Below are positions 1,901 to 55,652 of a stretch of DNA of 60,126 nucleotides, piece by piece. The translations under genes and the position numbers were made by a program. The stretch lies in assembly GCF_006345805.1 (NCBI RefSeq), contig NW_021832573.1:1-60126 (forward strand). Reading direction: 5' to 3'. The stretch is from Octopus sinensis (taxonomy: Eukaryota). How positions within the stretch are numbered: the stretch's first letter is position 1; each line of letters starts with the position of its first letter. The notes below the pieces were generated by a model, which saw nothing but the letters and a program-made list of their open reading frames with translations, had not been told where the DNA came from and made no database searches.

Positions 1901-1937
1901 TATATATATATCATCATGATGTGTATATAGACAAATG

Positions 1938-2687
<750 letters not shown>

Positions 2688-3485: not shown

Positions 3486-4237
3486 ACGCTGATACGTATC
3501 GAATTATATAGCAAGAAAGGTATATACTGACGTGTATACGATTTAACTGCAAATCCATTTAAGTAATCCGTGAATTTATTTTCGACAGAAAACTAAATGG
3601 CAATATTTTATTCAATTCGGCGCATATATTTATAGTATACATAAATACATAAATACACCTGTAATTATATACAGAAAAATACTTAAGTATCCATATATAT
3701 ATATATGATACGAGCAAAACGTCCCGCACCACCGTCCAATGGACGGTGCTGAATCATATCTTTGTTTTCTTTTCATTAAAATATAATTAAGCATGCCTTT
3801 ATTTCAATAAAATTTTTGGCTTTGTTAAACGAAGTTAAGGCAAAAAAAAAAACTTCTTGAGAAAGCAAATAGTCTTTCCTTCCTTAATGCCCAGTTTGAA
3901 GAAAATATCTCTTTTGCATTTTACTTTTTTGGTCTCTTAAATATACTGCATTTTGTGGCATTATTTCAAGCCAGGCGGCTTTTTTTGCGCAAACAGAACG
4001 TGCATTTTTCTCGCGTACTCGTAGTACCGATCGCAACAGCTGATGTACTTACGCGTACAAATGCACGTTCCCACGGCTTTATCGATCGCATTCTCACCTA
4101 GAATCGATTTTTGTAATTTTTTTCAAGACTTATACACGCCCTGAAACCTCTGTATCTACATATCAAATTTGAGCGCAATCGGATGGAGGATGCCCGAGAT
4201 TCTAGAAGACACACACACAGACAGTCAGAACGGATTT

Positions 4238-4276
<39 letters not shown>

Positions 4277-4455
4277 CGATTTTTTTCCCTCTGTCTTCCC
4301 GTCTCTGGATCTCTCTTTCTCCTACGTTTCCGAAGAAGAGCTCCGCTCGAAACGTTAAGCCCTCCTTCTTTCCTTCTTTCCTGAGCGTCGAATAATACTA
4401 TATTTGTTTTACGTCCTCGCGTTGTTGTGTTTTTTGTGCTTTCATGTTTGGATTA

Positions 4456-4494
<39 letters not shown>

Positions 4495-5700: not shown

Positions 5701-6087
5701 TGTGATATTATAACTGCACATTTATTTAATCATTTGTGAGTTAAGCTGGACGCAAAAGCGGTTTAGTAATATTTTATTTCATTACTATATATTCAATCAT
5801 GTATTTCCTAAATTGTATATTCGTTCATGTAATTCTTATATTTATCTTATTTTGATTTATTCATTTAGTTGAGTGTATTTGCATACAATTAGGGCTCAAG
5901 TCGGCATATGTGAGATATGAATTTCATATGCATTGAGATACGACGTGCAATGCTTTATTAATACTGAAGCAATCATTTGAATGTTATGCTATGGCGAGCG
6001 TTAGCTATAACATATTGATACATTTGGGATATATAAGTTAGGTAATATATACAGGGATACATATAGCTGTATATGTGGTAATTATAA

Positions 6088-11697: not shown

Positions 11698-11931
11698 TAT
11701 TTCTTTACAACCCACAAGGGGCTAAACACAGAAGGGACAAACAAGGACAGACAAACGGATTAAGTTGATTATATCGACCCCAGTGCGTAACTGGTACTTA
11801 ATTTATCGACTCCGAAAGGATGAAAGGCAAAGTCGACCTCGGCGGAATTTGAACTCAGAACGTAACGGCAGACGAAATACGGCTACGCATTTCGCCCGGC
11901 GTTCTAACGTTTCTGCCATCTCGCCGCCTTT
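11698..11931 (-). mobile_element. Full-length SINE family A (Tx1-like tail) with 15-bp target-site duplication
   Basis: aatcacatcgagacc at 11683-11697 and 11932-11946 flanks a complete copy. Confidence 0.9.
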
Positions 11932-12133
11932 AATCACATCGAGACCATCAATTGTTACATCGCCAAAAGAGTGAAGTAATTGACTTACTACTGACAATGA
12001 GTTTTAGAGAAGCTACAATCAAATCTGTCGGCTCGTGTTCATATTGTCATCAAGCCACCAAGAATATAGTTTTTCTTCTTTTTATCATAAATCCTTCATA
12101 ACGTATATCTCTTTCCTCATTGACAAGTTAATA

Positions 12134-12395: not shown

Positions 12396-12854
12396 ACATA
12401 TGTAAATGATATTGGTTTTCAACGTATTGGACCAGATGTTGTCTAATGATCTGATGGTCCAAGCTTTAAGCTGATTGAATATCAGCCTAAGACGTCATGT
12501 TGGTTTGTGTGCAGTCTTCGTAATAATTTTCATGAGCTTAGCACGCATAATACAAGTCACCCGCTTTCCATAGTGTTTAAGTCAAATGATGTCAATGGTC
12601 ATCTTCGAACCCGAAGGACGAACATTCATTCATTCATTCAAGTAACCGAGAACACAAATATAAATAAAAGCTACAAATATATATATAAATCAAAGAATGT
12701 AAGAAATTGAAAAGGCGATGCGTGGTATACCGTGGTATACCGTGACCCTGTTCAGACAACGTCGAGCAGATGAAGGTGTTATTTGTGCAGGTCTATCGGC
12801 AAAAGTTGAACACTCAGACGTCGTCTTCGACGGGAGAGCCAATTATGTATATAT

Positions 12855-13075
12855 ACTCTTTTACTCTTTTACTTGTTTCAGTCATTTGACTGCGGCCATG
12901 CTGGAGCACTGCCTTTAGTCGAGCAAATCGACCCCTGGACTTATACTCTGTAAGCCTAGTACTTATTCTATCGGTCTGTTTTGCCGAGCCGCTAAGTTAC
13001 GGGGACTTAAACACACCAGCATCGGTTGTCAAGCAATGTTGGGGGAGGACAAACACAGACACACAAACACACATG

Positions 13076-13153
<78 letters not shown>

Positions 13154-13324
13154 TATATACATATATACGAGGGGTTTCTTTCAGTTTCCGTCTACCAAAT
13201 CCACTCACAAGGCTTTGGTCGGCCCAAGGCTATAGTAGAAGACATTTGCCCAAGGTCCCACGCAGTGGGGCTGAACCCGGAACCATGTAGTTGGTAAGCA
13301 AGTTATACTACAGCCACCCTGCCT
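12855..13324 (-). mobile_element. CORE-type tRNA-SINE family B with internal (TA)/(CA) microsatellite
   Basis: tRNA-like head, accttgggcaa CORE-like motif, tail tgactgaaacaagtaaaagagtaaaagag; many copies in window. Confidence 0.85.
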
Positions 13325-13451: not shown

Positions 13452-14272
13452 GTGAGTATGTTGTCTAAGTTACGCAAAAATGAAAATAACACTGAAATTT
13501 CATTTTAAGAGATACATTTATCAAAATAGCATTAAAATATCTTGAAGTATTAAAGAGTAAATTTATTCAATAAAATCCCCATTCGCTTCAACCACGGCCT
13601 CCAGGCGACTTCGGAATCTCCTGCAACTCTTCTGGACAGTCTCCTTGTTTAAGTTGGTGAATACTGCTATAATCCTTGCCTTCAGTTCATCTTTGGTGCT
13701 ACAAGGAGTTTTGTTGGTTTCTCGCTCAACTGCGCTCCACATAATCAAGGGGGCTGCAGTCTGGGGAGTTAGGTGACCAGATATTAGGGGTGATACGGTC
13801 GCAGCAATTGTCAGACGGCCATGACTGGGTTCTCCTGCATGTGTGGTATGGTGCAGAGTCCTGTTGCCAGACATAGGGTCTTCCAGCAGTCACCCTCTTG
13901 ACCCAGAGCAGCACTACCTCCTCCAGGCACTTGATGTAGACCTCCGCGTTGAGTCTGAGGCCGTGTGAGAAGATGAATGGAGGCGTAACGTCTCCATCAC
14001 TACTGACCACTCTAAACATCATGATGTTGACTGGATGTTTGATTTTTATCACTCTCTGCAAGATTTTTATCACTTCTACCGTGAATGCCAAGCAGTACAG
14101 CATGCCATTTCCAAATTTCTGGCAGAGTAATTGTGTCATGGTGCTGTTTTTTCTCACAGACCGTGCCCAACTAACCCAACCAAACCGTGTAGTCGACAAA
14201 ATCAAAAACAAGCAATGCACATGCACGAAATTGAAAATATAAAATGGCGACAATTTACCTATTGCACCCTAT
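13445..14272 (-). mobile_element. Internally deleted Tc1/mariner-superfamily transposon, DD37D (maT) type, transposase pseudogene
   Basis: VWQQDSAPYH...WSPNSPDCSPLDY with 37 residues between the second and third D; frameshifted C-terminus WSAVERETNKTP...RLEAVVEANGDFIE; terminal tatagggtgcaataggtaaattgtcgcca on minus. Confidence 0.85.
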
Positions 14273-15723: not shown

Positions 15724-16264
15724 CTTGGAAATGATTTTAAAAAACATTAAAATAGTATCTGTTTAAAGAAAGCTAAAATATAAATACTTACTCTACAAAC
15801 AACTTTCATTCTTAAAATCACATTCAGTTAAAAATATTTCTAAATTATTAAAATACTGTGTACGTCAAAAAGACGGCGTTTCTTGTATTTTCCTTACTAC
15901 GTGTGTGTATATGTCACAGATAGCGGACGTGTGTTTGTGTCGATTGACACGCCATGACACGCGTTGATTGACACGCCATTATATGTGTGTGTATTCTGTA
16001 TGTGTTTGTGTTGACGTCACAGAAGCCGTGTTTTATTTTGTCAAGAAAAAACAAAGATTGTTTAATCGTTTTCCTTAATAAATAGAGGTCCAGTTATCAC
16101 ATGAATTTGTACTGCACTGCCAAAGTTAAGTATGAAAATAAATATGCAAAAAAATTAAGATTAAAAGGAGTTTTAGAGATGTGTGTATATGTATACACAT
16201 GTAAGTAAATATTAGATATATATTATATATACATGTATGCATATTATATACATATATATTTTTT

Positions 16265-16676
16265 TTTATTCCTTTCCTTGTTTCAATCATTTGTCTGCGG
16301 CCATGCTGGAACACCATCTTAAAGGGGTTTTAGAGGAATAAATCGACCCTAGGACTTATTTCTTAAACCTGATACTTATTCTATCTGTCACTTTTGCCGA
16401 ACCTCAAAGTTACAGGGACTTAAACACACCAACACCGATTGTCAAGTGGTAATGGGAGGACAAACACAGATTCATAGAAACATGCATAAACATATATATA
16501 CATATATATATACGACAAGCTTCTTTCAGTTTCCGTCTACCAAATCCATTCACAAAGTTTTGGTCGGCCCGAAGCTATAGAAGAAGGCAATTGCTCAAGG
16601 TAACAGACAGGCGGACTGAAACCGGAATCATTAGGTTGGAAAGCAAGCTTCTTACCACACAGCCACGCTTGCGCCT
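16265..16676 (-). mobile_element. CORE-type SINE family B (older copy)
   Basis: Alignable by eye to 12855-13324. Confidence 0.8.
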
Positions 16677-16698
16677 ATACATTCATATACATACATAA

Positions 16699-16746
<48 letters not shown>

Positions 16747-18599: not shown

Positions 18600-19350
18600 T
18601 GTGCCAATTTTTGGCTCAAGATCAGCTATTTTAAGGGGACGGGTTAGTGAACCTTATTACTTGACTGGTACTTCATTTTATCGACTCCAGAAAGGATGAA
18701 AGGCAAAGTTGTCCACGGTGGAATTTGAGCTTAGAATGTAAAGAGCTGCAAGAAATGTCGCTAAGCATTTTTTGTCCGACGCGCTAATGATTTCGGCAGC
18801 TCACCGCCTTAAGATTAGTCGGCTCTATAAAGGGGTTGAACTTGCGACACTCGGACTAAAAGTTCGCTACACTACCGACAGAGAAATGAAGGCAACAATA
18901 GTAATAGTAATCCTTTCTACTATAAGCACAATGCCTGAAATTTGGTGGGGGGGACTAGTCGATTACATCGACCCCAGTGTCTCACTGGTACTCATTTTAC
19001 CAACTCCGAAAGGATGTAAAGCAATGTCGACCTCAGCGGAATTCGAACTCAGAAGCATTTCGTGCTTACGATGCTGCTAGCTCGCCGCACTATAACAATA
19101 ACAATGCTAATCCCTTCTACTATAGGCACGAGGCCTGACATTTGAGGGAGGAGGACAAGTCGATTGCGTCAACCCCAGTTCATCACTGGTACTTTATTTA
19201 TTGACCCCGAAAGGATGAAAAGCAAAGTCGACATCGGCGGATTTTGAACTCCGAACGTAAAGACGGACGAAATGCCGCTAAGCATTTTACCCGGCGTGCT
19301 AACGACTCTGCCAGCTCGCCGCCCTATAACAATAATAATAATAATAGCAA
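18600..19350 (-). mobile_element. Three tandem SINE family A copies (about 18600-18810, 18910-19090, 19110-19325) separated by AAT/AAC-rich tails
   Basis: Repeated aggatgaaaggcaaagtcgac...gaactc...gccagctcgcc blocks. Confidence 0.8.
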
Positions 19351-26486: not shown

Positions 26487-26892
26487 GCGCAGGAGTGGCT
26501 GTGTGGTAAGTAGCTTGTTTACCAACCACATGGTTCCGGGTTCAGTCCCACTGCGTGGCACCTTGGGCAAGTGTCTTCTGCTATAGCCCCGGGCCGACCA
26601 ATGCCTTGTGAGTGGATTTGGTAGACGGAAACTGAAAGAAGCCCGTCGTATATATGTATGTATATATATGTGTGTGTGTGTGTCTGTGTTTGTCCCCCTA
26701 GCATTGCTTGACAACCGATGCTGGTGTGTTTATGTCCCCGTTACTTAGCGGTTCGGCAAAAGAGACCGATAGAATAAGTACTGGGCTTACAAAACAATAA
26801 GTCCCGGGGTCGAGTTGCTCGATTGAAGGCGGTGCTCCAGCATGGCCGCAGTCAAATGACTGAAACAAGTAAAAGAGTAAAAGAGTAAAGAG
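26487..26892 (+). mobile_element. CORE-type SINE family B, near-consensus copy
   Basis: gcgcaggagtggctgtgtggtaag...ggttcagtccc...accttgggcaagt...tail aagtaaaagagtaaaagag. Confidence 0.9.
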
Positions 26893-27238: not shown

Positions 27239-27344
27239 CTATTTATATATATATATATATTATATATATACATATGCATGTATATACATATATTTATATA
27301 TATATGTGTGTGTGTAATATATATAAAATGGGACAATCTAATAA

Positions 27345-27730
27345 TGGTGACTGTGTAATAAGAAGTTTGCTTCTCAACCACATTGTTACGGGTTCAGTTC
27401 CACTGCGTGGTACCTTGGGCAAGCGTTGTCTACTATAGCCTCGGACCGATCAGAACCTTATGAGCAGATCTGGTAGACGGAAACTGAAAGAAGCCTGCTG
27501 TGCATATATATGTGTGCCTTTGTATCTGTGTTTATCCCTCACCGCCACCGCTTGACAACCGGTGTGGGTGTGTTTACTTCCCTGTAAATTGGCGTTTCGT
27601 TAAAAGAAATGGACAAAATAAGTACCAGGCTTTAAATAGACAAGTTCTGGAATCGATTCATTTGATTAAAAGTTCTGGAAAATGGTGGCCCAGCATGACC
27701 GTAATTTGATGAATGGATCAAGTAAAAGAC
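27345..27730 (+). mobile_element. Older SINE family B-related copy
   Basis: ggttcagttccactgcgtggtaccttgggcaag...ggtagacggaaactgaaagaagc. Confidence 0.7.
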
Positions 27731-29796: not shown

Positions 29797-29856
<60 letters not shown>

Positions 29857-29858
<2 letters not shown>

Positions 29859-30610
29859 TGATCAAAATAAAAACATGATGCCAAGGATTCAGCGGTACAT
29901 ATGTTTCGGGCCTTTATTAGACAGATTTATAACAATGCATAATGTATGTCTGTGGCCTTCTTCAGCCGCGCACAACAGCTTCCACAAGGACATGTGTTAC
30001 ATCAAAAATTCTTGGTTGGGGATACAAATCCTCTCATTCGCGTACGACATAATGCGGCAACAGCATAGAATTGAAGCGTCCATCTCTTTCTTCTCTCAAT
30101 GTAAAATGAGGAAATTTGGATGTTGAAGTAATGTAAATAAATAAATACATATATAGACGTGAAGATGGAGGGGCGAGAATTCAGGACGAGGGATAAAAAA
30201 TGTATGTATAAAAAGTGTAAGTATAGAAAAATATAAAAATATAGAGTATAAAGATATAAAGGGATATAAGGAGATGTAAAGGGGGTATAAAGAATATAAA
30301 GAAATATAAAGAAATATAAATGAATGTAAAGGCATAAGGTTATAAAGTAAAAATAGAAATAGAAATAAAATTAAAAAGTAAAAAAATAAAAATAGGAATA
30401 AACATGATAAAAATGTAAAAAAATGTAAAAAAATATAAAGATAAGGGATGTATAGAGGTTACGGACCAAACATGGTGGTCAGGAGATTGATAAAATTTAG
30501 TTGTAGAAGTTTTGGGTGTCAATAAATCAACAGGGTCGTCTGGGGACCTAGTGTGTTGTAAATCAGAGCTGTTGAGCGTTTAATCTAGTTCTTTGAATTA
30601 ATTGGTCATC
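29857..30610 (-). mobile_element. Probable Penelope-like element 3' end with HHR (left arm of large inverted repeat plus extension)
   Basis: HHR at 29892-29969 on minus strand; ends in (TA)n; 29857-30361 is reverse-complementary to 31144-31648. Confidence 0.55.
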
Positions 30611-31143: not shown

Positions 31144-31725
31144 TATTTCTATTTTTACTTTATAACCTTATGCCTTTACATTCATTTATATTTCTTTATA
31201 TTTCTTTATATTCTTTATACCCCCTTTACATCTCCTTATATCCCTTTATATCTTTATACTCTACATTTTTATATTATTCTATACTTACACTTTTTATACA
31301 TACATTTTTTATCCCTCGTCCTGAATTCTCGCCCCTCCATCTTCACGTCTATATATGTATTTATTTATTTACATTACTTCAACATCCAAATTTCCTCATT
31401 CTACATTGAGAGAAGAAAGAGATGGACGCTTCAATTCTATGCTGTTGCCGCATTATGTCGTACGCGAATGAGAGGATTTGCATCCCCAACCAAGATTTTT
31501 TGATGTAACACATGTCCTTGTGGAAGCTGTTGTGCGCGGCTGAAGAAGGCCACAGACATACATTATGCATTGTTATAAATCTGTCTAATAAAGGCCCGAA
31601 ACATATGTACCGCTGAATCCTTGGCATCATGTTTTTATTTTGATCAATTTACTCCACCACCTACACCACCAAACGGTATACACAGGTGCTTATAATTATC
31701 AAGTACTCACCCCGTATTTCTCTCT
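31144..31725 (+). mobile_element. Probable Penelope-like terminal repeat with HHR (right arm of large inverted repeat)
   Basis: gcgg-CTGAAGA-A-GGCC...GGCC-C-GAAA-CATATG-TA-ccgc at 31536-31613; ends at (TC)(TA)n. Confidence 0.6.
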
Positions 31726-32212: not shown

Positions 32213-32213
32213 G

Positions 32214-32260
<47 letters not shown>

Positions 32261-32293
32261 GTAGGTAGGTAGGTAGGTAGGTAGGTAGGTAGG

Positions 32294-32332
<39 letters not shown>

Positions 32333-32353
32333 GTAGGTAGGTAGGTAGGTAGG

Positions 32354-32392
<39 letters not shown>

Positions 32393-32510
32393 TAGATAGA
32401 TAGATAGATAGATATAGATAGGTAGGTAGGTAGGTAGGTAGGTAGGTATTTGGTAGGTAGGTAGGTAGATAGGTAGGTAGGTACGTAGGTAGGTAGGTAG
32501 GTAGGTAGAT
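32213..32510. repeat. Compound (GATA)n/(GGTA)n microsatellite at the 3' junction of the long Tx1 copy
   Basis: Direct reading. Confidence 0.95.
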
Positions 32511-32809
32511 AACTTTTTATTGTAGCCACACAGGGCTAAACAGAATAAAAATGGATGAAATACAATATAGAATTTTTTTCTTTTCGAGGTGGGATGGGTG
32601 GGGCACAAAAACAAACGTTTGATCAATAGGGATCTGTGAGTTGTGTGGTGTATAAAAAAGCAATATATATATATATATATATATATATAAGATTCACAGT
32701 TTAGGTGTAGCCTTGGAAAGAAAAACCTACAAAAAAGACCAAGGTCACCTCAGACAATTCGAAAAAGAACACATGAGTAAGTCGCCTTACTTCTCGTTGT
32801 CTCTTTTGG

Positions 32810-35800
32810 TTACAGATTTATGCTTAAAATAGTGTCGTCTTTCATACTGACCATTTTTGCCACTTTTACCCACTTTTTATTAAAACATTCGTTCGACAAA
32901 GCCTTCCTCTCTATTCTCATCCTCCTTTTCAAATAGTACTTGAAAAAGTTGACGAGAGACTGACCAGAGAGGAAGGTGTTTGTTTGCAGTCCTTTCAAAC
33001 GCGTCCACCACACACATTCTTTCGCCATAGCCATCAGCGTAACGAAAACCGTTTTCCCTTCCCGTTTAAAGGAAGGTGGTGGAACGATATCCACGATAGA
33101 CTCGGCCGATAGGCGAGCCCGACCTACACGTGACAATAGCTGTTCGACGAAGGACCACAGCTCTGAAATATCTGGACACTGCACGAGTGCGTGCAGAACG
33201 GTTTTGTCGCTCTGACCGCATCTCGGGCAGGTCGGTCCGGTGATGGTTTTCGAACCGTGTCTGTAGCTCTTCTCTCGAACAGGTAGTGCGTCTCGATAGC
33301 ACTGCCAAGCCAGGAATTTCTGGAAGTTATCCATAGGCCCCTGCCCGAACGTCGTCCTGAACAGGCGGGTTAGGAATTCCTCGTCGACGCCCAGGTTTGC
33401 CCCGAGTGTGTCGTCGGACCTCCCCTCCACTAGTCCTCTATAGAACGCTTTAGTCGTTTGTAAGTTGCACAAGTTTGACCCCGGTCGGCATAGCTGCTGT
33501 AGAGCTTGGCGACACTCTCGGTGTCAATCGCCCAGTTTCGGTCTCTTTTTGATACACGTTTGCAGTTCGGTCAGTGAGACGAGCTGCGGGAAGTCGCGCC
33601 TCACAAACGGCGCCCACACCTGTTCACCGTCGTCGATGAAGTTCCAGAGATGTCGCAGTCTCAGCGCATGCCTGCGCATCATCAACCACGGCATGCCTAG
33701 TCCTCCATTCAACGGATGTTGACAGCAAATGGACTTCCTCACAATCGGAACGCCACCCTTCCACAGGAAGCGGAAGTGTATGCGTTCCAGTTTGGTGATG
33801 GTGGCGTCGGGACAAGGTACGACGGTCAGGCGTTAATCGATGACGGATGCGATGTACGCGTTCGCCACCTCCGCCCGGCCTTTTAGAGACAGCTTTCTCT
33901 CGGCCCATGTTTGGCTGAGAGCGACCACTCTACTCGTGATCTCGTCCCAGTTCTTATCCGGACTGAACCAGACCCCGAGCAATTTAACCGGTCCGTCCGT
34001 CCAGCGTCCCACTACTGAGCCGCAGTCGGACGGCATGGGCTTGCTTCTCCAGGTGCCGAGTAGCAAACCCACTGACTTTTCCGGGTTAATCTTTGCTCCC
34101 GTCACCGTTTCGTATTTTCTTAGTGTCTCGCCTATCATCTTGATGTGTTTGTCGCTCGACACTATGACGGTGACATCGTCCGCATATGCCGACACGCTCG
34201 TCCCGCAACCCAGTTCCCGTGGGATGCCCCTCAGTGTCGCCAGCTTCCGCAGTAGCGGCTCGAGAGTCAATACATACAGAAGCGCCGACAGGGGACACCC
34301 CTGACGGACCGAACGCGTGATGTCAAACGGTTTCGACAGGTGACCGTTCACCCGAATCACCGATCGGATGCCGTTATACAAGGCAGCGATCCAACCGCGG
34401 AAGACGGGACCGAAGCCAGCCGCCCTGAGGACGGCCGCCAAGTACCGATGGTGGACCCTATCGAAGGCTTTAGACTGATCCAAATTTATCAGCGCCCCAC
34501 CCATGCCAGGATCCTTAACTACCCTGTCCACAATGTAGCGCATCAGATGGAGGTTGTCATGTATGGTTCTGCCCGGCACGGCGCATGTTTGCGCCCTGTC
34601 GACCAGTTTACCAATGACAAGCGCCAACCTCTCGGCTATTACTTTGGCCAAAATTTTCAAATCTGCGTTGAGCAGAGTGATGGGCCTGAAATTATCTATA
34701 AAATTCCCCTTGTTTGGGTCTTTCTTCGGCAACGTCACTGCACCTCGGCTCACGAAACCGGGGATTCTCCCGTTTTGTTGCCAGTTGCAGTAGACTGATG
34801 CCAAGAGGTCGCCAAACAAGTCTGGCATTTGACAATACAGCTCGTAGGGTAAACCATCCAATCCAGGCGACTTATCCCTCGCGCAGCCAACCATCACATC
34901 CCACACGTCAGCGGCTGTGATGGGTCTTTCACAACACTCCGCCTTCTCTTGCCGAGAGCCGCGGCAGGTCGGTCAGGTAGGCACTGAAATCCATCCCGGG
35001 TTCCGACCCACCACTCGCACCAAACAGTCGAGCAAAGTGCTGTTGAAAGGCCTCACACATCCTTTCGGATCTATTAGAGACCGAATGGTGGCTCTGTTGC
35101 CACGCTGCGCCTCCGCTACCCCCGGGCCTCTCACGCGCAGCTTCGATCCTTCGTTCCTTAAGGCACGCATTTTAGCTCTGACGACGCACCTTCGTGCTTG
35201 GCGTTGAGGTGTTGGTCGAGGGCCATCCTCGCAGCCAGCACGTTGGTTGCGCTGCCAGTGGTAAGTGCCCTTCTAGTTCTTAACCAAGTCTCCCTCTACT
35301 CTATTTCGTTCTATCGCTAATTCCTTGCTAAACCTAATTGATTCCGATTTTATTGCCATTTTCAGGGCGTACCACCAGCGGTTGTTAACGACGGCTCTCG
35401 TCAGCGCCCTCTTAATTAACTCGCTAATCCGGTTCCTGTAAACCTGTCGCGCTAACAGCGACGTGTTCAGTTTCCAGTAACCGGGACCCTGCCTATGTGT
35501 TTTATCTAAGTCGAGCGTACACGTAACAAATTTGTGATCTGTGTAGCTGACTATTTTAAATTGTGGACATCCTACACTATCCCTATCCGCTGTCCTGCAT
35601 AGAATTCTATCTAGATAAGATCTCGACGATCCGACGCGGTTTGTCCAAGTCCACGTTGGCACGTTCGGATGGTCGAATCGGAACCTGTCAGACAAATGGA
35701 AACGTCTGAGCAGGTCTTTGAGGCTCTTACATCCCCTTCTATTCCTATCCCTTCCCACATACTAGATGCGTGTCCAAGGTAGCGTTCCAATCCCCTACTA

Positions 35801-36220
35801 ACAGTAAAGTTCTAGACGTACCCAGGAAACCTCTAGACGTCTGAAGAAATCCGCCCGACCCGTTAAGGACGGTGCATAAACTGCCATCAGACGGAATGCA
35901 CACCCATTTCTGCCATCCACGTCCAAGACAACCAGCCTACCCTCCGGGTCTAGGAATATTGCTCTTACTTTTACATTTAGACTCTTTCGAAAAAGCACCG
36001 CGGTACCTCCACCACCCATGTTCGGCAGACAGGGAGAAAAATAAATGTCAAATTGATTGCCAAACATGGACTCGAGGGCCCGCGGCTTACTGAGTCTGGT
36101 TTCACTGATAGCTACTATATCCACATTCAGTGACTTGATGTCGTTTAGAAGGTAACCTTGCTTGCAAGCCGACGCCAAGCCACGCGCATTCACACAACCT
36201 AATTTAAGCATACTTGACAT
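32810..36220 (-). pseudogene. ORF2: apurinic-like endonuclease + reverse transcriptase + C-terminal Cys/His domain, several frameshifts and stops
   Basis: VNARGL, VAISET, VYAP, GDWN, SYLDRIL, YTDH, GPGYWKLNTSLL; KSPGLDG, NFRPITLLNADLKILAK, LDQSKAFDRV, VRQGCPLS, AYADD; CPRC...LHALVQC. Confidence 0.93.
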
Positions 36221-36277
36221 TTACGAAAATTGTGTTCTACACACTACATTAGAAGAGACAAGAGGCAAGAGGGGAGG

Positions 36278-38065
36278 TCACTTACTCATTTTAAAAGTTT
36301 CATTTTTTTCTTCTTCTTTTGTATTGTTTTTGATGAGGTGTTTGTATAGTTTTTTCGACAGGTATCGTTGAAACCCGCCTACCGCATTCGGAAATATTGT
36401 TTTCAGTATGTGGTGTTGTGCTTGTGTTATGTGTAAAATTCTGATGTGTTTCGGTGGTGTGGTGTGCGGATGATTGTTTGTCTTAAATTCATCTTCACAG
36501 ATGACCGTGCTGGATGTGATGTAGTCCATTAATTCTTTATTGTCTGTGTCTATTGCAGTTAGTTGTGTGTGTGGTTTTACGGGTTCGTTGCTTTTTTGAT
36601 TGTCTAGGGGGATGTTGTCCGGAGTTAGATATCTCCCTGCTTTACTTCCTTGTTTGGTGGATTTTTTGGATCTTTTTCTTTTACCCCCTGTGGCTTTTTG
36701 CCATTCCGTCGAACTTTCGTCGTCCGACGTATCAGTATGGGGTAGAGGCAAAGCATTTGCATTACTATGTATGCTTGTATAAATTGTTGATGTTTTGTGC
36801 GGTGTTTGTGTTGTTGTGGTGTTAGGGGTAGAATTTGTCTTCTCGTCACTGTTTTCTGTCTTTTTAATTGTCGTCCTCGGTGTGGGTGTTGGTCTATTTT
36901 TTGTTGATTCAACATGTTGAATTGGTTGTGACGTCAACGGTGATTGTGTTGGTACTGTTTCTTTTCTTGGTGATGTTGTTGGGGTTTGTTTGCTGGTTTG
37001 TTGTTTTTCTTGGCATTGTTCCATAATTGAGTGTGTTGGTGTTGGTGTTGGTGTTGGCAACAAGGGTTTTTTATTTGTTTTCTGATTTGTTCTTTCTTGT
37101 TTTTTCTGTACCAGAGCGCACTTGGCAATCAAATGTTCGGGGCTGCCACATTTGTAGCATCTAGGCTTTTTGCCTTCTGCTACAACATATAGGCATTGCC
37201 CATTTTCCAAGTGGATCTTATCCGGTAGGCTCTCGATAGAGGCCCCCTCAATCTGTATGGTCACCACTACTGTCTTCCCACCCCAAATGTCGCCAAGGTA
37301 CACGGCGGTTTCCAAAATGTTGATTTTTTTAAATGGAACAGATTGCCCCTGTTATCCATTTGTTAGGAATCTCGGGAGGTACATTTTTTAGTAATAGTGA
37401 TTCGACTCACTCTCTGGTTTTTATGTATGGGACCATGATGATTTCATCATTTCCCAGAGACTCAGTAGAGTGATTTTGCCACTTCCTGGTTAGGGAAGCG
37501 GACCACTACTGTGTTAAACTGGGGACCCCCGTTTATATATTCTTTTCTTTCATTATGTTTTTTAAGCATTTTTCTACATCCGTTTTTGTAATCTGTTCAT
37601 TTGGTTTTTTGTTTTTTCTAATAATTTTATATATTTGTCTTATTTTCATTTCTTTTCTTGCTTTATATGTGTTGAGGTTTATGTAGCACTAAATCTTGCC
37701 CACTGGTTGTAAAGAGAGATCTTTGTTTCTAAAGTTCTTCGTTCGTGAATGTAAAATCTCCTTTTCTTCTGACCAGAGGTGTCAGCGAAATTTGTTGGTG
37801 TGTAATTCTGTTATATTAACATCTTCACTATTAGATAGTTCATTTTTATTGTTGTTCTTGTTGCTGTTGTTTTTGTCAATAGTTTTCGTGTGAGTTTTAT
37901 TTTTATCACTTATGTTGGTCCTGGTGGTGTGGTGGTGGTGGTGGTGGAGTGGTGGTGGTAGCAGTAGTAGTCTCGTTGTTGCTGTTGTTAATGGTGGTGG
38001 TGGTGGTGGTGACAGGGCTGTTACCGCACGTGGTTGCAGCGTTCATTCGACCGTTATTCATGTTG
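36278..38065 (-). pseudogene. ORF1, gag-like with CCHC zinc knuckle and low-complexity T/P/K region; 5' part frameshifted
   Basis: ORF 36278-37315 contains CYKCGSPEHLIAKC (CX2CX4HX4C); upstream extent inferred from base composition. Confidence 0.75.
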
Positions 38066-38368
38066 CACTTTGCGTGCATGAGTTCTTTTTTCTTCTCCTA
38101 GCGTTTCAAACTAGGAAAAATGCTGGTCCAATAAAGGAACGCGACCAGCGTTTACAATAAAATTTCTCGACATTTTCTAATGTCGAGAAGAAAATCACAG
38201 AAATGAAATGGGGTTGAAACTGCCCCTAGGGGCGAATTCCTCCTTGGAAAAGCACTCAAACGAAAGTTGGGTGCCTTACACACCTTATTTGCAAAAATGT
38301 ACACAAATATGGGCTATAAATAGTCAAAATAAACGATTACCTTCGGCCGAAGTGACAGCACGTCCGTC

Positions 38369-38447
<79 letters not shown>
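38369..38447. repeat. Pure (GATA)n array between two Tx1 copies
   Basis: Direct reading. Confidence 0.97.
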
Positions 38448-40673
38448 GAGTTTCTTTATTGGCCACACAGGGCTGCACACAGATGGGACAAATTACAAGG
38501 TAGAGCTTTTCTTTTGGGGGATGAAAAAAACAAAAAACAAAAAACAAAAGAAACAAAAAAAATTTGGCGTAGGTTTTCGATCAAAAGGGATCGTAAAAGG
38601 GAAAAAAGAAACAAAAGAAAAGAAAAAGGAAAAAAGGTGAAGAGGGAAAAAAGCGATCAATAGGGATCGTGTATCACAGTGTCATGATGTACGGTGTAAG
38701 GGGAGAAGCAGATAAGGTTTATTCTTGGGAAGAAAAGCCTACGAAAAAGACCACGGTAACCTCGGTCAATATTGTTATATGTTACCACATTTGTTTGCAA
38801 GTGGGTAACCCTCTGTTTTCAATTTCTGGGTTCATAGGATTATGCTCAAGGTGGCTTCGTCATTTTTTTAAAACATTCACTAGACAAAACTTGCCTCTCT
38901 ACTCTCACTTTCCTTTTCAAGTGGTACTTGAAGAAGTTGATGAGAGATTGACCAGAGAGGAAAGTGTTTGTCTCCAATCTTTTCAGACGCGTCCACCAGA
39001 TACATTCTTTCGCCATAGCCACAAGGATGATGAAAATAGCTCTTCCTTCCCGTTTGAAGGAAGGAGGCGTGACAATATTGACGATAGACTCAGCTGATAA
39101 ACCGACATCGTCCCACACGTGACAGCAGTTGTTCTACATAAGCCCACAAGTCGGAAATTGTTGGACACTGCACGAGTGCGTGCAGAACGGTTTCGTCGCT
39201 CTGACCGCAGGTCGACCCCGCGTTTCTCGAGCCGTGTCTGTAGAGCTTATCCCGAACGGGTTGCGCTTCTCGGTAGCACTGCCAGGCCAGGGATCTCTGG
39301 AAGTTGTCCATGGGCCCTGGCCCGAAAGTCGTCCCGAACAGGCGGGTCAGGTATTCCTCGTCGATGTCCAGGTTCGCCCCGAGCTCGTCGTCGTACCTCC
39401 CCTCCACTAATCCCCTATAGAATGCTTTGGTTTTGATAGAGTCACTCAAGTTCGACCTAGGACGGCAGAGTTGCTTGAGAGCAACGCGACACTCGCGGTG
39501 CCATTCGCTCTTCCTCGGCCTCTTTTTGATCCACGACTGCAGTTCGGTCATGGAGACGAGCTGCGGGAAAGCGTGTCCCACAAACGGTGACCACACCTGT
39601 TCACCGTTGTCTACGAAGAGCCTGAGATGTCGCAGTCTCAGCGCGTGTCTGCGCATCATCAACCACGGCATGCCCAGTCCTCCTTTTAACGGGTGTTGAC
39701 AGCAAATGGATCGCCTGACCATCGGGCGCATCCTTTCCACAAGAAGCGAAAGAGAATGCGTTCTAGTTTAGTGATGGTAGGGTCGGGACAAGGCGACGGT
39801 CTGACGGTAGTAGATGACGGACGCGATGTACGTGTTCGCCACCTTAGCCCGACCTTTTAGGGACAGTTTCCTCTCGGCCCATTGCTGAGCGAGAGTGATC
39901 ACCCTACTCGTTATCTCGTTCCAGTTCTTCTCCACTTGGAGGTCCGGACCGAACCAGACCCCGAGCAACTCGACCGGACCGTCGGTCCAGCGTCCCACAT
40001 CGGAGGCGCTGGTGGACGGCATGGGCTTGCTTCTCCAGGTGCCTAGTCGCAAGCCCACTGACTTTTCCCGGTTGATTTTCGCTCCTGTCACCGCTTCGTA
40101 GTTTTTCAGTGTCTCGCCGACCTGCTCGATGTGCTCGTGGCTAGACACTATGACGGTGACGTCGTCCGCGTATGCAGACACGCTCGTCCCGCATCCCAGT
40201 TCTCGCGGGATGCCCCTCAGAGTCGCCAGCTTCCGCAATAGTGGCTCGAGAGTCAATACGTGTAGAAGCGACGAGAGGGGACATCCCTGACGGACCGAAC
40301 GTGCGATGACGAAAGTTCTCGATAGATGTCCATTTACGCGAATTACCGAACGGATCGCTCTGTACAAAGCGGCTATCCAGCCGCGGAAGACGGGACCGAA
40401 GCCAGCCGCTCTGAGGACAGCCCCCAAGTATCGATGGTCTACTCTATCGAAAGCTTTCGATTGATCCAAATTGATCAGTGCCCCACTCATGCCAGGTTCG
40501 TTAACTACTCTGTCTATGATGTAGCGCATCAGATGGAGGTTGTCATGGATGCTCCGGCCCGGCACGGCGCACGTTTGCGCCTTGTCGACCAGTTTCTCGA
40601 TGACAAGCGCCAACCTCTTGGCTAACACCTTGGCCAAAATTTTCAAGTCTGCATTAAGCAGAGTGATGGGCCT
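38448..40673 (-). mobile_element. 5'-truncated Tx1/L1-type LINE, second subfamily (RT to 3'UTR), within (GATA)n
   Basis: RPITLLNADLKILAK...LDQSKAFDRV...RQGCPLS...AYADD; frameshifts; ~33-bp deletion near 38863 relative to the 1978-2587 copy; followed by (GATA)/(GACA)n 40674-40755. Confidence 0.92.
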
Positions 40674-40680
40674 AGATAGG

Positions 40681-40728
<48 letters not shown>

Positions 40729-40955
40729 CAGACAGATAGACAGACAGACAGACAGCTTGGTCTATAGGGTCGTAAATTCATAATTATGTGTGTACTTTTT
40801 CTGTGAATCTTGTGATGTCTTGAATATGTGCAATGCACATATATCCATGTAGTAAAGGAATCCATCATCTGGTTAATGAGGTTTGTGCCTTTTATGCATA
40901 ATGTTCTTATGACGCATATAATCGATGTCTAGACAAAAAGTCATCTAGGTTCGTT

Positions 40956-43591: not shown

Positions 43592-44034
43592 TCATGTGTG
43601 TGTGTGCAAGCTTGACTATTAGCATATACGTGAATGTATTTCCATATAAAGTACGTTTAGCACAACTCTATACACTAAACGTGTTTATCTTTTTTATATC
43701 AAAATATTCAACGGAAACATTTTTGATACAATTTTTCATGTCAAGCTGATTGTCATTTTCTTAGCTTAAATTTATTCTCATGTTATGAAACATCATCTTT
43801 CCTTTATTATATTCTACTATTTTCTTTTTCCTTGAACAGTTTATTATTTTATTTTATATTATTCTTTTCTACTCTAGGCACAAGGCCAGAAATTTTGGGG
43901 TAGGGGAGCAGTCGATTAGATCGACCCAGTACGCAACTGGTACTTAATTTGCTGTCGTTTTTTAGGAATATGAAATTACTAGGAGGACTAGATTCACGGC
44001 CCCTTCGCTCCCGCCCCTTTTAGTCTCCTAAAGT

Positions 44035-44521
44035 AGGATTTGACTACACCTTCATTTAGAGCACAGTTTAAGCTATCTTTTCGTGGAAGAAGGTTTATGT
44101 TCCTGTAACCTGTGTTAATTTTGTAACCCTTTAAATTGGAAGATAAGAAAGTTCATTTTCGGCACTTGATGCTTTGGGAACCAGACAAAAATTGCTGCAG
44201 CTTGACTGGGATGTGTTACCCCAGCCTCCATATTCAGCAGATATTGCTCCTTCGGATTTCCACTTATTCAGGTCTCTGCAGAATAGCCTTAATGGTAAAA
44301 ATTTCAATTCCTTGGACGACGTAAAAAGATACCTTGATGAATTATTTGCCATGAAACCACCTCAATTCTGGGAAGAGGGTATTTTTAAGTTAAAAGAAAG
44401 ATGGAGACGCATTGTGCAAGAAAATGGTTCATATTTGGTTGCTTAAAAATGTAATGGCAAGTATTTATTGACCTTTTTCTTTCGTTTAAAAATCGGCACG
44501 AACTTTTCGGACAACCCAATA
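44035..44521 (+). mobile_element. Internally deleted mariner, copy 1 (left TIR lost)
   Basis: EDKKVHFRHLMLWE fused to TRQKLLQLDWDVLPQPPYSADIAPSDFHLFRSL...ERWRRIV; right TIR + TA at 44520. Confidence 0.9.
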
Positions 44522-44932
44522 TTTTAAAGTAATCTGAATGGGCGCTAGACTCGATAGAACTGCATCCCGCTGTCTGAACTTCCTTTATTCGTCTCATTTT
44601 CCTCCTTTTCCTTTTGTCCCCATCTTTTTTCTTTAATTTCTTACTTTCATACGTCCGAGCGGTTTTACCAAAGCTAACTCTATCGATTTCCAACAATCAA
44701 TTAAATTATAGATTCCTTTTCAAATATTTTGTGATTCTACAACTTAACCTAAATTGCATAAAAGTATTGTATATCATTTAGCCATTATTGTCTGGCAAAC
44801 TGAAAGGTGAAATCGCCATGATGTTAGAAAATTCAACAACTTCAAGTAAATCTAATATTGTTTCACGCTTGTAAGTATGTATGTATGTATTCATATTTGT
44901 ATGTATGTATGTATGTATGTATGTATGTATTC

Positions 44933-44965
<33 letters not shown>

Positions 44966-45052
44966 TGTATGTATTATGTATGTATGTATGCATGTATGTA
45001 CGTATGTATGTACGTACGCGTGTGAATGTACGTATGTACGTATTTATGTATG

Positions 45053-45613
45053 TATTGGGTTGTCCGGAAAGTTCGTGCCGATTACATTTCGACTTATTTT
45101 AGAACGTGGTTGAGTCCATAAAATAGGATTTGACTATACCTCCATTTAGAGCACAGTTTAAGCTATCTTTTCCTGAAAAAAGATTTATGATCTTATAACC
45201 TGTGTTAATTCTGTAACCCATTAAAATAGAAGATAACAAAGTTCATTTTCGGCACTTGATGCTTTGGGAACCAGACAAAAATTGCTGCAGCTTGACTGGG
45301 ATGTTTTACCCCCACCTCGCATTCCTCATCCATATTCAGCAGAATGGCTCCTTCGGATTTCCACTTATTCAGGTCTCTGCAGAGGCCTTAATGGTAAAAA
45401 TTTCAATCCTTGGACGACGTAAAAAGATACCTGATGAATTCTTGCCATGAAACCACCTCATTCTGGGAAGAGGGTATTTTTAAGTTAAAAGAAATATGAG
45501 ACGCATTGTGCAAGAATGGTTCATATTTGGTTGCTTAAAAATGTAATGGCAAGTATTTATTGACCTTTTTCTTTCGTTTAAAAATCGGCACGAACTTTTC
45601 GGACAACCCAATA
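45053..45613 (+). mobile_element. Internally deleted mariner, copy 2 (both TIRs, chimeric)
   Basis: TA-ttgggttgtccggaaagttcgtgccgatt ... aatcggcacgaacttttcggacaacccaa-TA. Confidence 0.88.
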
Positions 45614-46131
45614 TTTTAAAGTAATCTGAATGGGCGCTAGACTCGATAGAACTGCATCCCGCTGTCTGAACTTCCTTTATTCGTCTCATTTTCCTCCTTT
45701 TCCTTTTGTCCCCTTCTTTTTTCTTTAATTTCTTACTTTCATACGTCCGAGCGGTTTTACCAAAGCTAACTCTATCGATTTCCAACAATCAATTAAATTA
45801 TAGATTCCTTTTCAAATATTTTGTGATTCTACAACTTAACCTAATTGCATAAAAGTATTGTATATCATTTAGCCATTATTGTCTGGCAAACTGAAAGGTG
45901 AAATCGCCATGATGTTAGAAAATTCAACAACTTCAAGTAAATCTAATATTGTTTCACGCTTGTAAGTATGTATGTATGTATCTCATATTTGTATGTATGT
46001 ATGTGTAGTGTGTATTCATATATGTATGTATGTATGTATGTATTATGTTGTAGTGGTATGATGTATGTATGCATGTATGTACGTATGTATGTCGTACGCG
46101 TGTGAATGTACGTATGTACGTATTATGTATG

Positions 46132-46465
46132 TATTGGGTTGTCCGGAAAGTTCGTGCCGATTACATTTCGACTTATTTTAGAACGTGGTTGAGTCCATAA
46201 AATAGGATTTGACTATACCTCCATTTAGAGCACAGTTTAAGCTATCTTTTCCTGAAAAAAGATTTATGATCTTATAACCTGTGTTAATTCTGTAACCCAT
46301 TAAAATAGAAGATAACAAAGTTCATTTTCGGCACTTGATGCTTTGGGAACCAGACAAAAATTGCTGCAGCTTGGCTGGGATGTGTTACCCCACCCTCTAT
46401 ATTCAGCAGATATTGCTCCTTCGGGTTTCCACTTATTCAGGTCCCTGCAGGATAGTTTTAATGGT
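46132..46465 (+). mobile_element. Internally deleted mariner, copy 3 (3'-truncated)
   Basis: Left TIR plus WDVLPHPLYSADIAPSGFHLFRSL. Confidence 0.85.
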
Positions 46466-46934
46466 ATGTATATATATGCATTTATGTGTTGTGTGGAAGA
46501 ACACACCTATTGTTTGGTTCCTAATGGACTGTGCCATGTGCCTCCACCTATATATAACGTGCATATGGAATGTAATGAAACACAAATATGACTAAGACCT
46601 ACAGACGGTATATTCATGTAGGTTATAGTTTAATTTCTAGCGATTTCTTTGGACCCCGAATGTTTTCATTGGTTTATTTGTACGTCTTGGTTACGGTGAT
46701 ACGATACGAAGACTGTAGTGCGTCCATTTGTAGCGATTTTGCAATGTTTTGTATTTCTTGTTGTTTTAACTGATTGCATAAAAATATTTTTGGAAGAGAA
46801 AGAAAGATTTATAACTTATCTGGTGGGGAAAGCCACTGAACATCGGTTTCCATACACGCACGCATGCACACATACACACACACGGATAGACACATATGCA
46901 CACACACACATGCACGCACGTACACACACAGACA

Positions 46935-46991: not shown

Positions 46992-47165
46992 AAATCCTTC
47001 GAATTCTACATCTTTCCCATACCTTGCCAAGTGTCACTCTGGCACCTGAGACATAATTTTCTTTAATACACACATTTATCAATCAACTGGATTACAACTG
47101 TCACCATAATAATAAATGTCTTTACCGGATATTTAAATTGGTAATACCTTTCTCTAGATATGTAC

Positions 47166-47585
47166 AGGCGCAGGAGTGGCTGTGTGGTAAGTAGCTTGCT
47201 TACCAACCACATGGTTTCGAGTTCAGTCCCACTGCGTGGCACCTTGGGCAAGAGTCTTCTACAATCGTGAGTGGATTTAGTAGACGGAAACTGAAAGAAG
47301 CTCGTCGTATATGTGTATATATATATATATATATGTGTGGTGTGTGTGTGTGTTGTGTGTGTGTGTGTGTGTGTTTGTGTGTCTGTGTTTGTCCCCTCAA
47401 CATCGCTTGACAATCGATGCTGGTGTGTTTACGTCCCCGTAACTTAGCGGTTCGGCAAAAGAGACCGATAGAATAAGTACTAGGCTTACATAGAATAAGT
47501 CCTGGGGTCGATTGGCTCGACTAAAAGGCGATGCTCCAGCATGGCCACAGTCAAATGACTGAAACAAGTAAAAGAGTAACAGAGT
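47166..47585 (+). mobile_element. CORE-type SINE family B
   Basis: Matches 26487-26892. Confidence 0.88.
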
Positions 47586-48889: not shown

Positions 48890-49720
48890 TTTCCTTAAAG
48901 AAGGCCCAATTGGCTGCAACTGCCTGACTTCTGTTTTAGGAAATCATGTAGACACTCTCCTGGTTTTACCAGTTACTCCAAGGTCTCGCAGCTTGTAACA
49001 TATCGTGCTATGATCTACCTTATCGAAGGCCTTTTGCAGTTAAGATACTCTTTTACTCTTTACTCTTTTACTTGTTTCAGTCATTTGACTGTGGCCAACC
49101 TAGAGCACCGCCTTTAGTCGAGCACATCAATCCCAGGACTTATTCTTTATAAGCCTATTACTTATTCTGTCGGTCTCTTTTGCCGAACCACTAAGTAATG
49201 GAGACGTAAACACACCAGCATCGGTTATCAAGCGATGTTGGAGAGACAAACGCAAACACATAAGCACACACACACACACACACACACACACCACATATAT
49301 ATATATATATATACGTATATACGACGGGCTTCTTTCAGTTTCCGTCTACCAAATCCACTCACAAGGCTTTGGTGGACCCGAGGCTATAGTAGAAAACACT
49401 TGCCCAAGGTACCACGCAATGAGAATGAACCCGGAACCATGAGGTTGGTAAGCAAGCTACTTACCACACAGCCACTACTGCGCCTATAAATGATGATCGA
49501 GTAGCTGCTCCAAAACCCAGTCATAGTGCGGAAAGAGCTATGTGAGGGATCCTCTTCTTGGATGTAAGCCATGCTGAGTATCATTCAGTAAGTCATTTTC
49601 TACTAGAAGAGTAATCAGTTTCTTTCTGACAATTCGTTCCATGACCTAGCTGATATGTGCAGTCAGACGGATTGACCTGTAGCTTTTAGCTTCTGTTCCT
49701 CTTCCGCCTTGCTCTGCAGT
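48890..49720 (-). mobile_element. Decayed CR1-type reverse transcriptase fragment, interrupted by a SINE
   Basis: Minus strand KGG...SYRSIRLTAHIS*VMERIVRKKL...LLNDTQHG, then after the SINE KAFDKVDH...KLRDLGVTG. Confidence 0.75.
49046..49485 (-). mobile_element. CORE-type SINE family B inserted in the CR1 fragment
   Basis: Reverse complement of family B. Confidence 0.88.
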
Positions 49721-53175: not shown

Positions 53176-53237
53176 TATTTACTGCTTAATTATCATTCAA
53201 TGTATCTTAAGTCTGTAATATCTCTAATCATCCCTGA

Positions 53238-53850
53238 AAGCGACAAGCTGGCAGAAACGTTAGCACGCCGGGCGAAATGCTTAGCGGTATTTCGTGCGTC
53301 TTTACGTTCTGAGTTCAAATTCCGCCTAGGTTGACTTTGCCTTTCATCGTTTCGGGGTCGATTAAATAAGTACCAGTTACGCACTGAGGTCGATATAATC
53401 GACTTAATCTGTTTGTCTGTTCTTGTTTGTCCTCTGTGTTTAGCCCCTTGTGGGTAGTAAAGAAATAGGTATTTCGTCTGCCGTTATGTTCTGATTTCAA
53501 ATTCCGCCGAGGTCGACTTTGCTTTTCATCGTTTCGGGGTCGATAAATTAAGTACCAGTTACGCACTGGGGTCGATCTAATCGACTTAATACCTGTACCT
53601 GTCCTTGTTTGTCCCCTCTGTGTGTAGCCCCCTGTGGGCAGTAAAGGAATAAGAAACGTCAGCACGCCGAGCAAACTGCTTGGCAGCATTTCGTCCGCCT
53701 TTACGTTTTGGGCTCAAATTCCGACACGGCCGACTTCACCTTTCATCCTTTTTAGGTCGATAAAATAAGTACCATTCGAGCACTGAGGTCGGTGTAATCG
53801 ACTTACGCCCTCCCCCAAAGTTGCAGGCCTTGTGCCAAAATTTGAATCCA
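53238..53850 (+). mobile_element. Trimeric/nested SINE family A (two Tx1-tailed units followed by an older unit)
   Basis: Units about 53238-53467, 53468-53651 and 53652-53850; the second and third start inside the tRNA-like head. Confidence 0.85.
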
Positions 53851-54400
53851 GTATCTTTACTCTTCCCTAAGTACTAACTCATACCACAAAGAAGTCTATA
53901 TGCATACATATTCATATATTCATACAATATCTTCCTATATAGCAACATAGACATTTTTTAACCAGTGTATTTTCGTTTCCGTATAAGGAACATCTTCACC
54001 TCAACGATTTCTTTTATAATAATTCATTTCTTTTACTTCTTTAATAATTGAATTAATTTGCAATTCTGTTTGTTATTAGCAATTCACTGTTTAACATTAT
54101 TATAAAAATATTTTTTATAATATTGCGTTAGAAACAAAAAAGCAATCACTAACGATTACGCTTATAACATTTTAACCTCTTTCTCGAAATTTCTCGCTAA
54201 TTTAACTCTTACAGAACCTCTGTTTCTATTTTTAATAATTACACTAACACGCACATATATAATGTAAAGGCACAATTGTGTGTACATTATACACACACAT
54301 GCAAGCATATATGTATACACATACATATTTGTGTATATGTATATACATATTTATATGTGTGTGCGTGGTATATTTACATACGTATATATAATATATATAT

Positions 54401-54438
<38 letters not shown>

Positions 54439-54460
54439 ATATATATATATTAATATATAT

Positions 54461-54692
54461 CTTTTACTCTTTTACTTGTTTAGTTATTTGACTGCGGCCA
54501 TGCTGGAGCACGTCCTTTAATCAGCCAAATCGACCCCAGGGCTTATGCTTTGTAAGCCTAGTACTTATTCTAATCGGCCTCTTTTGCAGAAAACGCTACG
54601 TTACAGAACGTAACACACCACATCGGTTGTAAAGAGATGTTGGGGGACAAATACAGAGACCCAAAACATATACACATCATACATATTATATA

Positions 54693-54737
<45 letters not shown>

Positions 54738-54773
54738 TATATATAATATATATATGTATATATGTAATATATA

Positions 54774-54816
<43 letters not shown>

Positions 54817-54983
54817 CATATATATATACATATATACGACGGGCTTCTTTCAGTTTCTGTCTACCAAATCCACTCCCCGAGGCTATGGTAGAGGACACTT
54901 GCCCAAGGTACCACGCAGTGGGACTGTACCCAGAACCATGTGGCTCGTTAGTAAACTACTTACCACACAGCCACTCCTACGCC
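54461..54983 (-). mobile_element. CORE-type SINE family B with expanded internal (TA)n
   Basis: Reverse complement of family B head and tail. Confidence 0.82.
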
Positions 54984-55652
54984 GATAAAATGTGTGACGC
55001 TTACAGCACCCAGGTTTCCCAATATGTGTATGTGTGTGTGTTTGTGTGTGTGTATGTGTCCTCTACCACCAGTTGACAAAAGATATTTGTTTATGTTGCC
55101 TTAATTCAGCAGTTTGGTAAAAGGGGAAGAGAATAACTACGAGACTTTAAAAAAACACACACATATAAGTACTGAGTACGATTTGTTCGCCAAAAACCCT
55201 ACAAGGCGGTGCTCCAGCAAGGTACCAACCCAATGGCTGAAACAACTAAAAGGAAAAAGGCTACTTTGGTCCATAAATTGTTTATACTCATTAACTAGTA
55301 AGACAGAGAATCACTAGTTTCCTCAGCTCAAGTTGTTTACTTCATATAAAAGTTAAAGTGAAATTCTGTGAGATTAGAGGATTAGAACCAAGGACGGAAA
55401 CGAGAGACAGAATACTGTGAGTTGTTTAGTTTTGCCTTCTACACTCGCCATTTTGCCTTCTACGCTCGCTCCTAAACGCGCCATTTTAATCAATAGTAGT
55501 AAAAATATTTTAATTCCTGACAGAAATTATATTTACGAAAACTTTAGTCTGAAAGTTAAATTGATATTGAGAGGTCCTGTACCGCAAGTATATATATACA
55601 TATATACATTATATATACATTTACACATATAGTATTATATATATATATAATA

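Follow-up and report, generated by a model that had tools for sequence, protein, structure and literature searches.

Tx1 elements that lie in microsatellites have been described as Kibi in (TC)n and Koshi in (TTC)n of teleosts and as crocodilian families in (TTCC)n or (TTTC)n (PMC4494074, PMC3812793), and tandem Tx1 copies around a duplicated target have been reported as well (PMC4494074); these and the other papers cited here are represented by those parts of their text that were available. Here we analyze a long interspersed nuclear element (LINE) in a 60,126 nt stretch of Octopus sinensis DNA (RefSeq assembly GCF_006345805.1, contig NW_021832573.1, positions 1 to 60,126 of the forward strand; below, the window) which very probably has a real preference for (GATA)n arrays. 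Like Kibi, Koshi and the crocodilian elements, it is of the apurinic/apyrimidinic endonuclease (APE) type, falls in the L1/Tx1 group, is associated with a short pyrimidine-rich microsatellite and has several families per target. It differs from Kibi and Koshi in its target, (TATC)n/(GATA)n, and in its octopod host, and the likeness to them is one of description rather than of compared kinship. None of the window junctions carries (TC)n or (TTC)n, all of them reading TATC or TACC, and the nearest relatives of the window LINE do not target microsatellites.

The window contains three homologous copies of the element, A, B and C, all on the minus strand (Table 1), and a tblastn search of the window with four related proteins gave no fourth coding copy. 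An earlier note on this DNA had placed B and C exactly, and A with a start of 32511 that should be 32512. All of the junctions of the three copies (6/6) are in GATA arrays, which are five in number as one array is common to A and B, and every one of them reads TATC on the element sense strand, so the orientation is the same in 3/3 copies; poly(A) is present in 0/3. The same note had described these arrays, their orientation and the missing poly(A) correctly. It had also stated that AATAAA plus fewer than 10 nt joins the repeat directly, and this is true of A, where 4-5 nt separate the hexamer from the element end, and of B, where 7 nt do, but not of C, in which the hexamer is AATGAA. Over 1828 nt, A and B share 81.7% identity; C matches B at 95.5% over 176 coding nt but A at only 80.4% over 199 nt. 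Judged by these identities there are two subfamilies, A-type and a B-type that includes C, as had been proposed. Since A adjoins B, and C lies 30 kb away, the three insertions represent two loci, and it is plausible that A and B inserted into one ancestral array. The 5' junction of C has a 4-nt CTAT microhomology with its array. In the array 3' of A (32214-32511) GATA and GGTA blocks alternate, GGTA being the second unit from A, and one GGTA unit stands alongside the 5' end of B.

GATA/GGTA arrays make up 1.6% of the non-element bases of the window, or 0.54% without the five junction arrays. Two other families of dispersed repeats (below), with 11 copies between them and copy boundaries taken from self-BLAST, served as a control: a GATA run was found within 40 nt of 1 of their 22 ends, and 0/11 copies had GATA on both sides. 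AT repeats are about 2.5 times as abundant as AGAT repeats in the window (1630 versus 656 bp), yet they are used by none of the three LINE copies. By the published definition of a target preference, more than 20% of flanks (PMC4494074), all three window copies count toward it, in what is a small and not genome-wide sample.

Public sequencing runs extend these observations beyond the window. The LINE sequence is present in 20 of the 24 listed runs, under four organism labels, and in four runs with three organism labels between 9,844 and 20,669 contigs per run match it. Two of the 12 join rows displayed for run X1 (60 more were hidden) connect internal element positions (33403 and 33630) to a GATA flank in the expected orientation; each represents a further copy that is 5'-truncated and ends in GATA. 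Contig depth drops toward the 5' part of the LINE in 4/4 runs, to which subfamily divergence also contributes. In X1 the summed depth over the reverse transcriptase (RT) is about 0.4-0.76 million, compared with 60-73 for single contigs; summed depth is no copy number, and it suggests thousands of LINE copies.

Copy A is the only one of the three that carries an endonuclease, B and C being 5'-truncated before it, and there are no long terminal repeats. Open reading frame (ORF) 2 of A has an N-terminal APE domain (PF03372, E 2.5e-7), an RT (PF00078, E 8e-32) and a C-terminal zinc-binding domain (PF13966, E 1.8e-6), as expected of an APE-type LINE; it matches protein P0001 at 63% over 912 aa, and the endonuclease motifs N, E, GDWN, D and DH are all recognizable. 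The endonuclease hairpin loop has 9 residues in A and mostly 11 in its relatives. The knuckle region of ORF1 is weakly similar to the ORF1 of the sister lineage discussed below (E 1e-5), and ORF1s with a CCHC knuckle have been called consistent with Tx1 (PMC5203782), though they are not exclusive to it. The hairpin of 4 pairs near the 3' end has no covariation among the 3 sequences compared, an Rfam scan of the window gave no match, and no ribozyme-like pairing partner for the first 7 nt of A was found within its first 600 nt.

These domains and alignments identify the element as an APE- and RT-bearing LINE of the L1/Tx1 group, and it likely belongs to the Tx1 clade proper. In a Protein Data Bank search the best solved match of the RT is human L1 ORF2p (E 6e-34), with R2 at E 5e-21 and all 10 hits being L1 or R2 proteins; the N-terminal half has weak matches to the L1 endonuclease and exonuclease III (E 0.2-0.5) and the second half has no match, and in the ESM Atlas only generic RT clusters matched. 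The closest named protein, from Argonauta hians, is 68% identical. In a tree built by a quick method from 54 RT rows, A and B group with Argonauta (Shimodaira-Hasegawa-like approximate likelihood ratio test, SH-aLRT, 99), beside a group that holds the cuttlefish protein P0174 (joint SH-aLRT 100); this placement by itself points to an octopod host. No named Tx1 reference element is among the protein-search matches, the 30 clusters looked up or the 150 representatives, and the tree holds none. None of 75 loci from a metagenome search is octopod (best full-length identity 39%), and neither a protein search nor two DNA patterns found a relative in viral contigs. Among the relatives, the P0292 cluster of Patella caerulea comprises 11 ORF2 proteins that are nearly identical and whose locus tags, all on one contig, are near-consecutive; here too a related LINE probably forms a tandem array. 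A further related LINE (L117:2787-9920; 36% RT identity), in animal DNA in a bacterial assembly, joins U1 small nuclear RNA (snRNA) at about nt 37 with its 3' end, and a complete U1 gene, whose downstream flank is the same, precedes its 5' end; at this one locus it looks like a LINE that targets U1 snRNA.

The most informative relatives come from a protein search of prokaryote genomes, in which 43 of 45 loci, at ~49-50% identity, are from one assembly (G001) that carries animal DNA. Although filed as bacterial, G001 includes at least 16 contigs of animal DNA (C3-C19; L076-L116, L119-L157), largely head-to-tail LINE arrays, and this DNA is contamination, probably cephalopod by the tree. The sister lineage so defined shares its ORF layout with the window LINE at ~50% RT identity and includes P0174. 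Its array units are 6.4-6.8 kb long, have no poly(A) and are separated by private junction sequences; it forms long tandem arrays with short non-repetitive spacers, whereas the window LINE lies in GATA arrays. A survey of 33 regions of 16 G001 contigs, with 3' ends located by pattern search, showed that the elements end just past AATAAA and continue into a short family-specific junction sequence; poly(A) is found at 0/67 of these ends and GATA after 0/67. The absence of poly(A) is therefore a trait of the lineage that is not linked to GATA. Among the loci of the protein search the sister endonucleases are 89-96% identical, yet they occur at eight unrelated junction classes (a ninth belongs to a distant family), and their hairpin loop is identical in 7/8 classes with one change in the eighth. 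Where arrays end, the outer flank resembles the internal junction: 17/17 nt at the C6 start, 8 of the first 10 at the C19 start, the first 11-12 nt at the C5 and C19 ends, and the whole junction at C9. That near-identical endonucleases are found at unrelated junctions suggests that the RNA end, or re-insertion beside existing copies, plays a part.

How might such a target be chosen? We lean, at somewhat better than even probability, toward a mechanism in which a loosely selective nuclease and RNA-DNA pairing jointly select GATA. A high-copy octopod LINE would insert in fixed orientation into an existing (GATA)n array through target-primed reverse transcription, whose logic requires the GATA strand to be the primer strand. 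The APE domain would nick that strand, the TpA step in 5'-GAT/AGAT being the likeliest site; the B junction fixes this register, and the A and C junctions, each ambiguous by one base, are compatible with it. Transcript cleavage usually takes place 10-30 nt past AAUAAA. With AATAAA so close to the element end (4-7 nt), cleavage would fall inside the flank and leave an RNA that ends in a few UAUC units. This flank-derived (UAUC)n would pair with the nicked GATA strand and priming would start there, skipping poly(A), which would explain why it is missing. The 5' end would then join the other half of the array, sometimes via a short microhomology, and the target duplication would be hidden in the repeat. 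GATA arrays would be a stable attractor because each new copy again has a GATA flank.

Components of this scheme have parallels in described elements. Human L1 nicks TTTT/AA, the Tx1L target is AGTT and a chimera with the Tx1L loop nicks before AGCT (PMC1950540); the putative GAT/AGAT nick has TpA in common with L1 and AGNT in common with Tx1L. The Xenopus Tx1L and human L1 endonucleases have the APE fold and the same catalytic motifs as A, whose loop is of the L1 length, against 11 residues in Tx1L, and the window LINE differs from both elements in lacking poly(A) and in its tandem-repeat target. Pairing of RNA with the target at priming has been reported for R1Bm, SART1, R2Ol and the I factor (PMC7265360, PMC6007223). 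R1Bm, SART1, Waldo (ACAY) and Mino (AC) of the R1 clade are also APE LINEs with repeat targets in which such pairing aids priming (PMC3812793, PMC6007223, PMC7265360), but theirs is a different clade, and SART1 junctions carry poly(A) (PMC7265360).

It is possible, if in our estimate doubtful, that the target is set by nothing but an APE endonuclease specific for GATA, as is assumed for Kibi and Koshi, and that the missing poly(A) is incidental. The same 6/6 GATA junctions are expected in that case, the target has been kept in subfamilies 18% apart, the Tx1L endonuclease is sharply specific in vitro (PMC1950540), the loop of A departs from that of its relatives, and the Tx1 targets TC, TTC, TTCC and TTTC resemble TATC, orientation aside (PMC4494074). 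However, sister endonucleases with the same loop are at unrelated sites, and the L1 endonuclease is less selective when it nicks in vitro than L1 integration is in vivo (PMC1950540). The earlier note had supposed a GATA-specific endonuclease that is conserved across the subfamilies; that of A is the one GATA-family endonuclease available here, so such conservation is conjectural, and so is the GATA specificity of the endonuclease itself. At the other extreme, and rather unlikely, the site would be chosen mainly by a short RNA guide of ~10-20 bases copied from the downstream flank of the donor, which would pair with DNA that matches it, the target being inherited from the flank. The target could then change without any change of protein, the sister lineage would have moved into private tandem arrays with its own junction sequence in each subfamily, and an octopod founder landing in GATA would have acquired a great number of matching sites, and then spread. 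That there is no active targeting at all, and that copies accumulate passively through fragile sites, tandem re-insertion or survival bias with the three GATA cases due to ascertainment, is improbable. A and B are indeed adjacent, tandem insertion is habitual in the lineage (the sister arrays, the Patella cluster) and passive accumulation has been proposed for Waldo-A/B near CA repeats (PMC3812793), but the commoner AT repeats are unused, the orientation is fixed in 3/3 copies, C is 30 kb away and run X1 has the two further joins. Microsatellite tails are common in LINEs (PMC6007223), and (TATC)n could be an element-encoded tail of the kind found in some RTE, CR1 and L2 elements, with random insertion sites; GATA arrays of 79-100 nt are also present, however, at the 5' junctions of both truncated copies and of the full-length copy. 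A tail therefore cannot account for them, this explanation is largely refuted within the window and very improbable overall, and the earlier note's view that TATC is more than a tail stands. Finally, all junctions are in simple repeats and no run contig spans the whole element, as they would be if contigs had been mis-joined through GATA arrays. Yet GATA begins no more than a few bases from the element, the same joins are seen again in independent short-read contigs, between 19 and 44 contigs in each run extend past query ends that bear 16 nt of array (the end not being specified), and a mis-join could change the pairing of the outer flanks but not the contact of element and GATA. An assembly artefact is the least credible of these possibilities.

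Returning to joint selection by nuclease and RNA pairing, several points weigh against it or against the generality of the preference. The nick register depends on one discriminating junction, that of B, the UAUC-ended transcript is proposed from sequence, and the shorter loop of A would fit a changed nuclease; in published opinion it is chiefly the endonuclease that determines the target of Tx1 elements (PMC4494074). All of the sister evidence is from a single contaminated assembly at ~50% identity, and its arrays may in part be DNA duplications (C9 has two identical copies of one truncated unit). The junction letters shared there may belong to the end of the element itself, and the 4-11% divergence of the sister endonucleases could itself shift specificity. 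Only three insertions at two loci are known in full, and the X1 joins add cases but give no proportion, as non-GATA joins would be among the loose ends (24 shown, 7128 hidden).

Table 1. Positions of the three LINE copies, the parts of copy A and the flanking arrays in the window
Feature	Position	Strand	Basis and remarks
GATA array, 3' flank of C	1927..1977	+	Tandem Repeats Finder (TRF), sequence
Copy C, 610 nt left after 5' truncation; B-type subfamily; hexamer AATGAA	1978..2587	-	Sequence, alignment
(GATA)25 array, 5' flank of C	2588..2687 (repeat from 2585)	+	TRF, sequence
GATA/GGTA microsatellite array, 3' flank of A	32214..32511	+	TRF period 4, 75.5 units; sequence
Copy A, LINE of 5857 nt, apparently full length but inactive	32512..38368	-	Both ends abut GATA
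3' untranslated region (UTR) of A	32512..32809	-	Ends AATAAA + 4-5 nt, without poly(A); small conserved hairpin directly before hexamer
ORF2 of A: APE endonuclease, RT, zf-RVT; in-frame stops and local frameshifts	32810..36220	-	Pfam, frame map
Broken ORF1 of A with CCHC zinc knuckle and an extended low-complexity region; start inferred	36278..38061	-	PF00098 E 0.0023, under curated cut-off
Putative 5' UTR of A, several hairpins	38062..38368	-	Fold prediction without shuffle control
(GATA)19-20 array between B 3' end and A 5' end	38369..38447	+	TRF, sequence; common to A and B
Copy B, second subfamily, 5'-truncated inside RT	38448..40673	-	PF00078 E 1.9e-31, PF13966; 81.7% to A
GATA/GACA array, 5' flank of B	40674..40752 (repeat from 40673)	+	TRF, sequence

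Other repeats in the window include the two control families. One is a SINE-sized (short interspersed nuclear element) family of ~430 nt with an internal AT/AC microsatellite and seven copies (12849-13322, 16253-16743, 26487-26889, 27261-27729, 47160-47585, 49052-49491 and 54391-54989), and copies of the second are near 204-641, 11695-11936, 18894-19326 and 53237-53860. By alignment searches, the sequence that separates the GATA arrays at 13342 and 15061 is not a copy of the LINE; the degraded coding remnant at 13560-14270, between two GATA arrays, we take to resemble a Tc1/mariner-type transposase, and it has no Pfam match. An inverted repeat pair (29854-30361 and 31144-31651; 508 nt, 98.8% identical, ~780 nt apart) is possibly a young non-autonomous DNA transposon or a foldback element. 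Local tandem duplications are present at 44019-46466 (~1.1 kb units, 93.8%) and 3444-5701 (~1 kb units, 90%).

Microsatellite targeting by Tx1 elements is known; the (GATA)n target and the octopod host appear to be new. No GATA-targeting LINE or cephalopod Tx1 target was found in the literature, a comparison that lies outside Repbase, Dfam and the O. vulgaris consensus library, and the available parts of PMC8967140, PMC10294476, PMC11203168, PMC5203782 and PMC4640811 name Tx1 without a GATA target. An earlier description is possible, for example among the further Tx1 targets in Figure 3 of PMC4494074. In Octopus vulgaris 80 L1-Tx1 families make up 56 Mb, and 13 families have 421 recent insertions (PMC13282606); the available text of that paper gives no target preference, and "GATA", "TATC" and "target" have 0 matches in its supplement. 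The window family or a relative is probably among these families.

Few APE retrotransposons are listed as targeting microsatellites, and a 2013 review called the mechanism poorly understood (PMC3812793); the element extends that list by a (GATA)n target and a host group. The octopod GATA family and its ~50%-identical sister, which switches junctions with little change in its nuclease, form a natural pair for the study of target acquisition. If it is true that the RNA end steers insertion, APE elements would be retargetable by a few bases, which would be relevant to gene-insertion tools, and if the RNA-guide reading is true, this APE retrotransposon would be guided by RNA and retargetable in nature. 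For the octopods themselves, GATA markers may often sit in the flanks of these elements.

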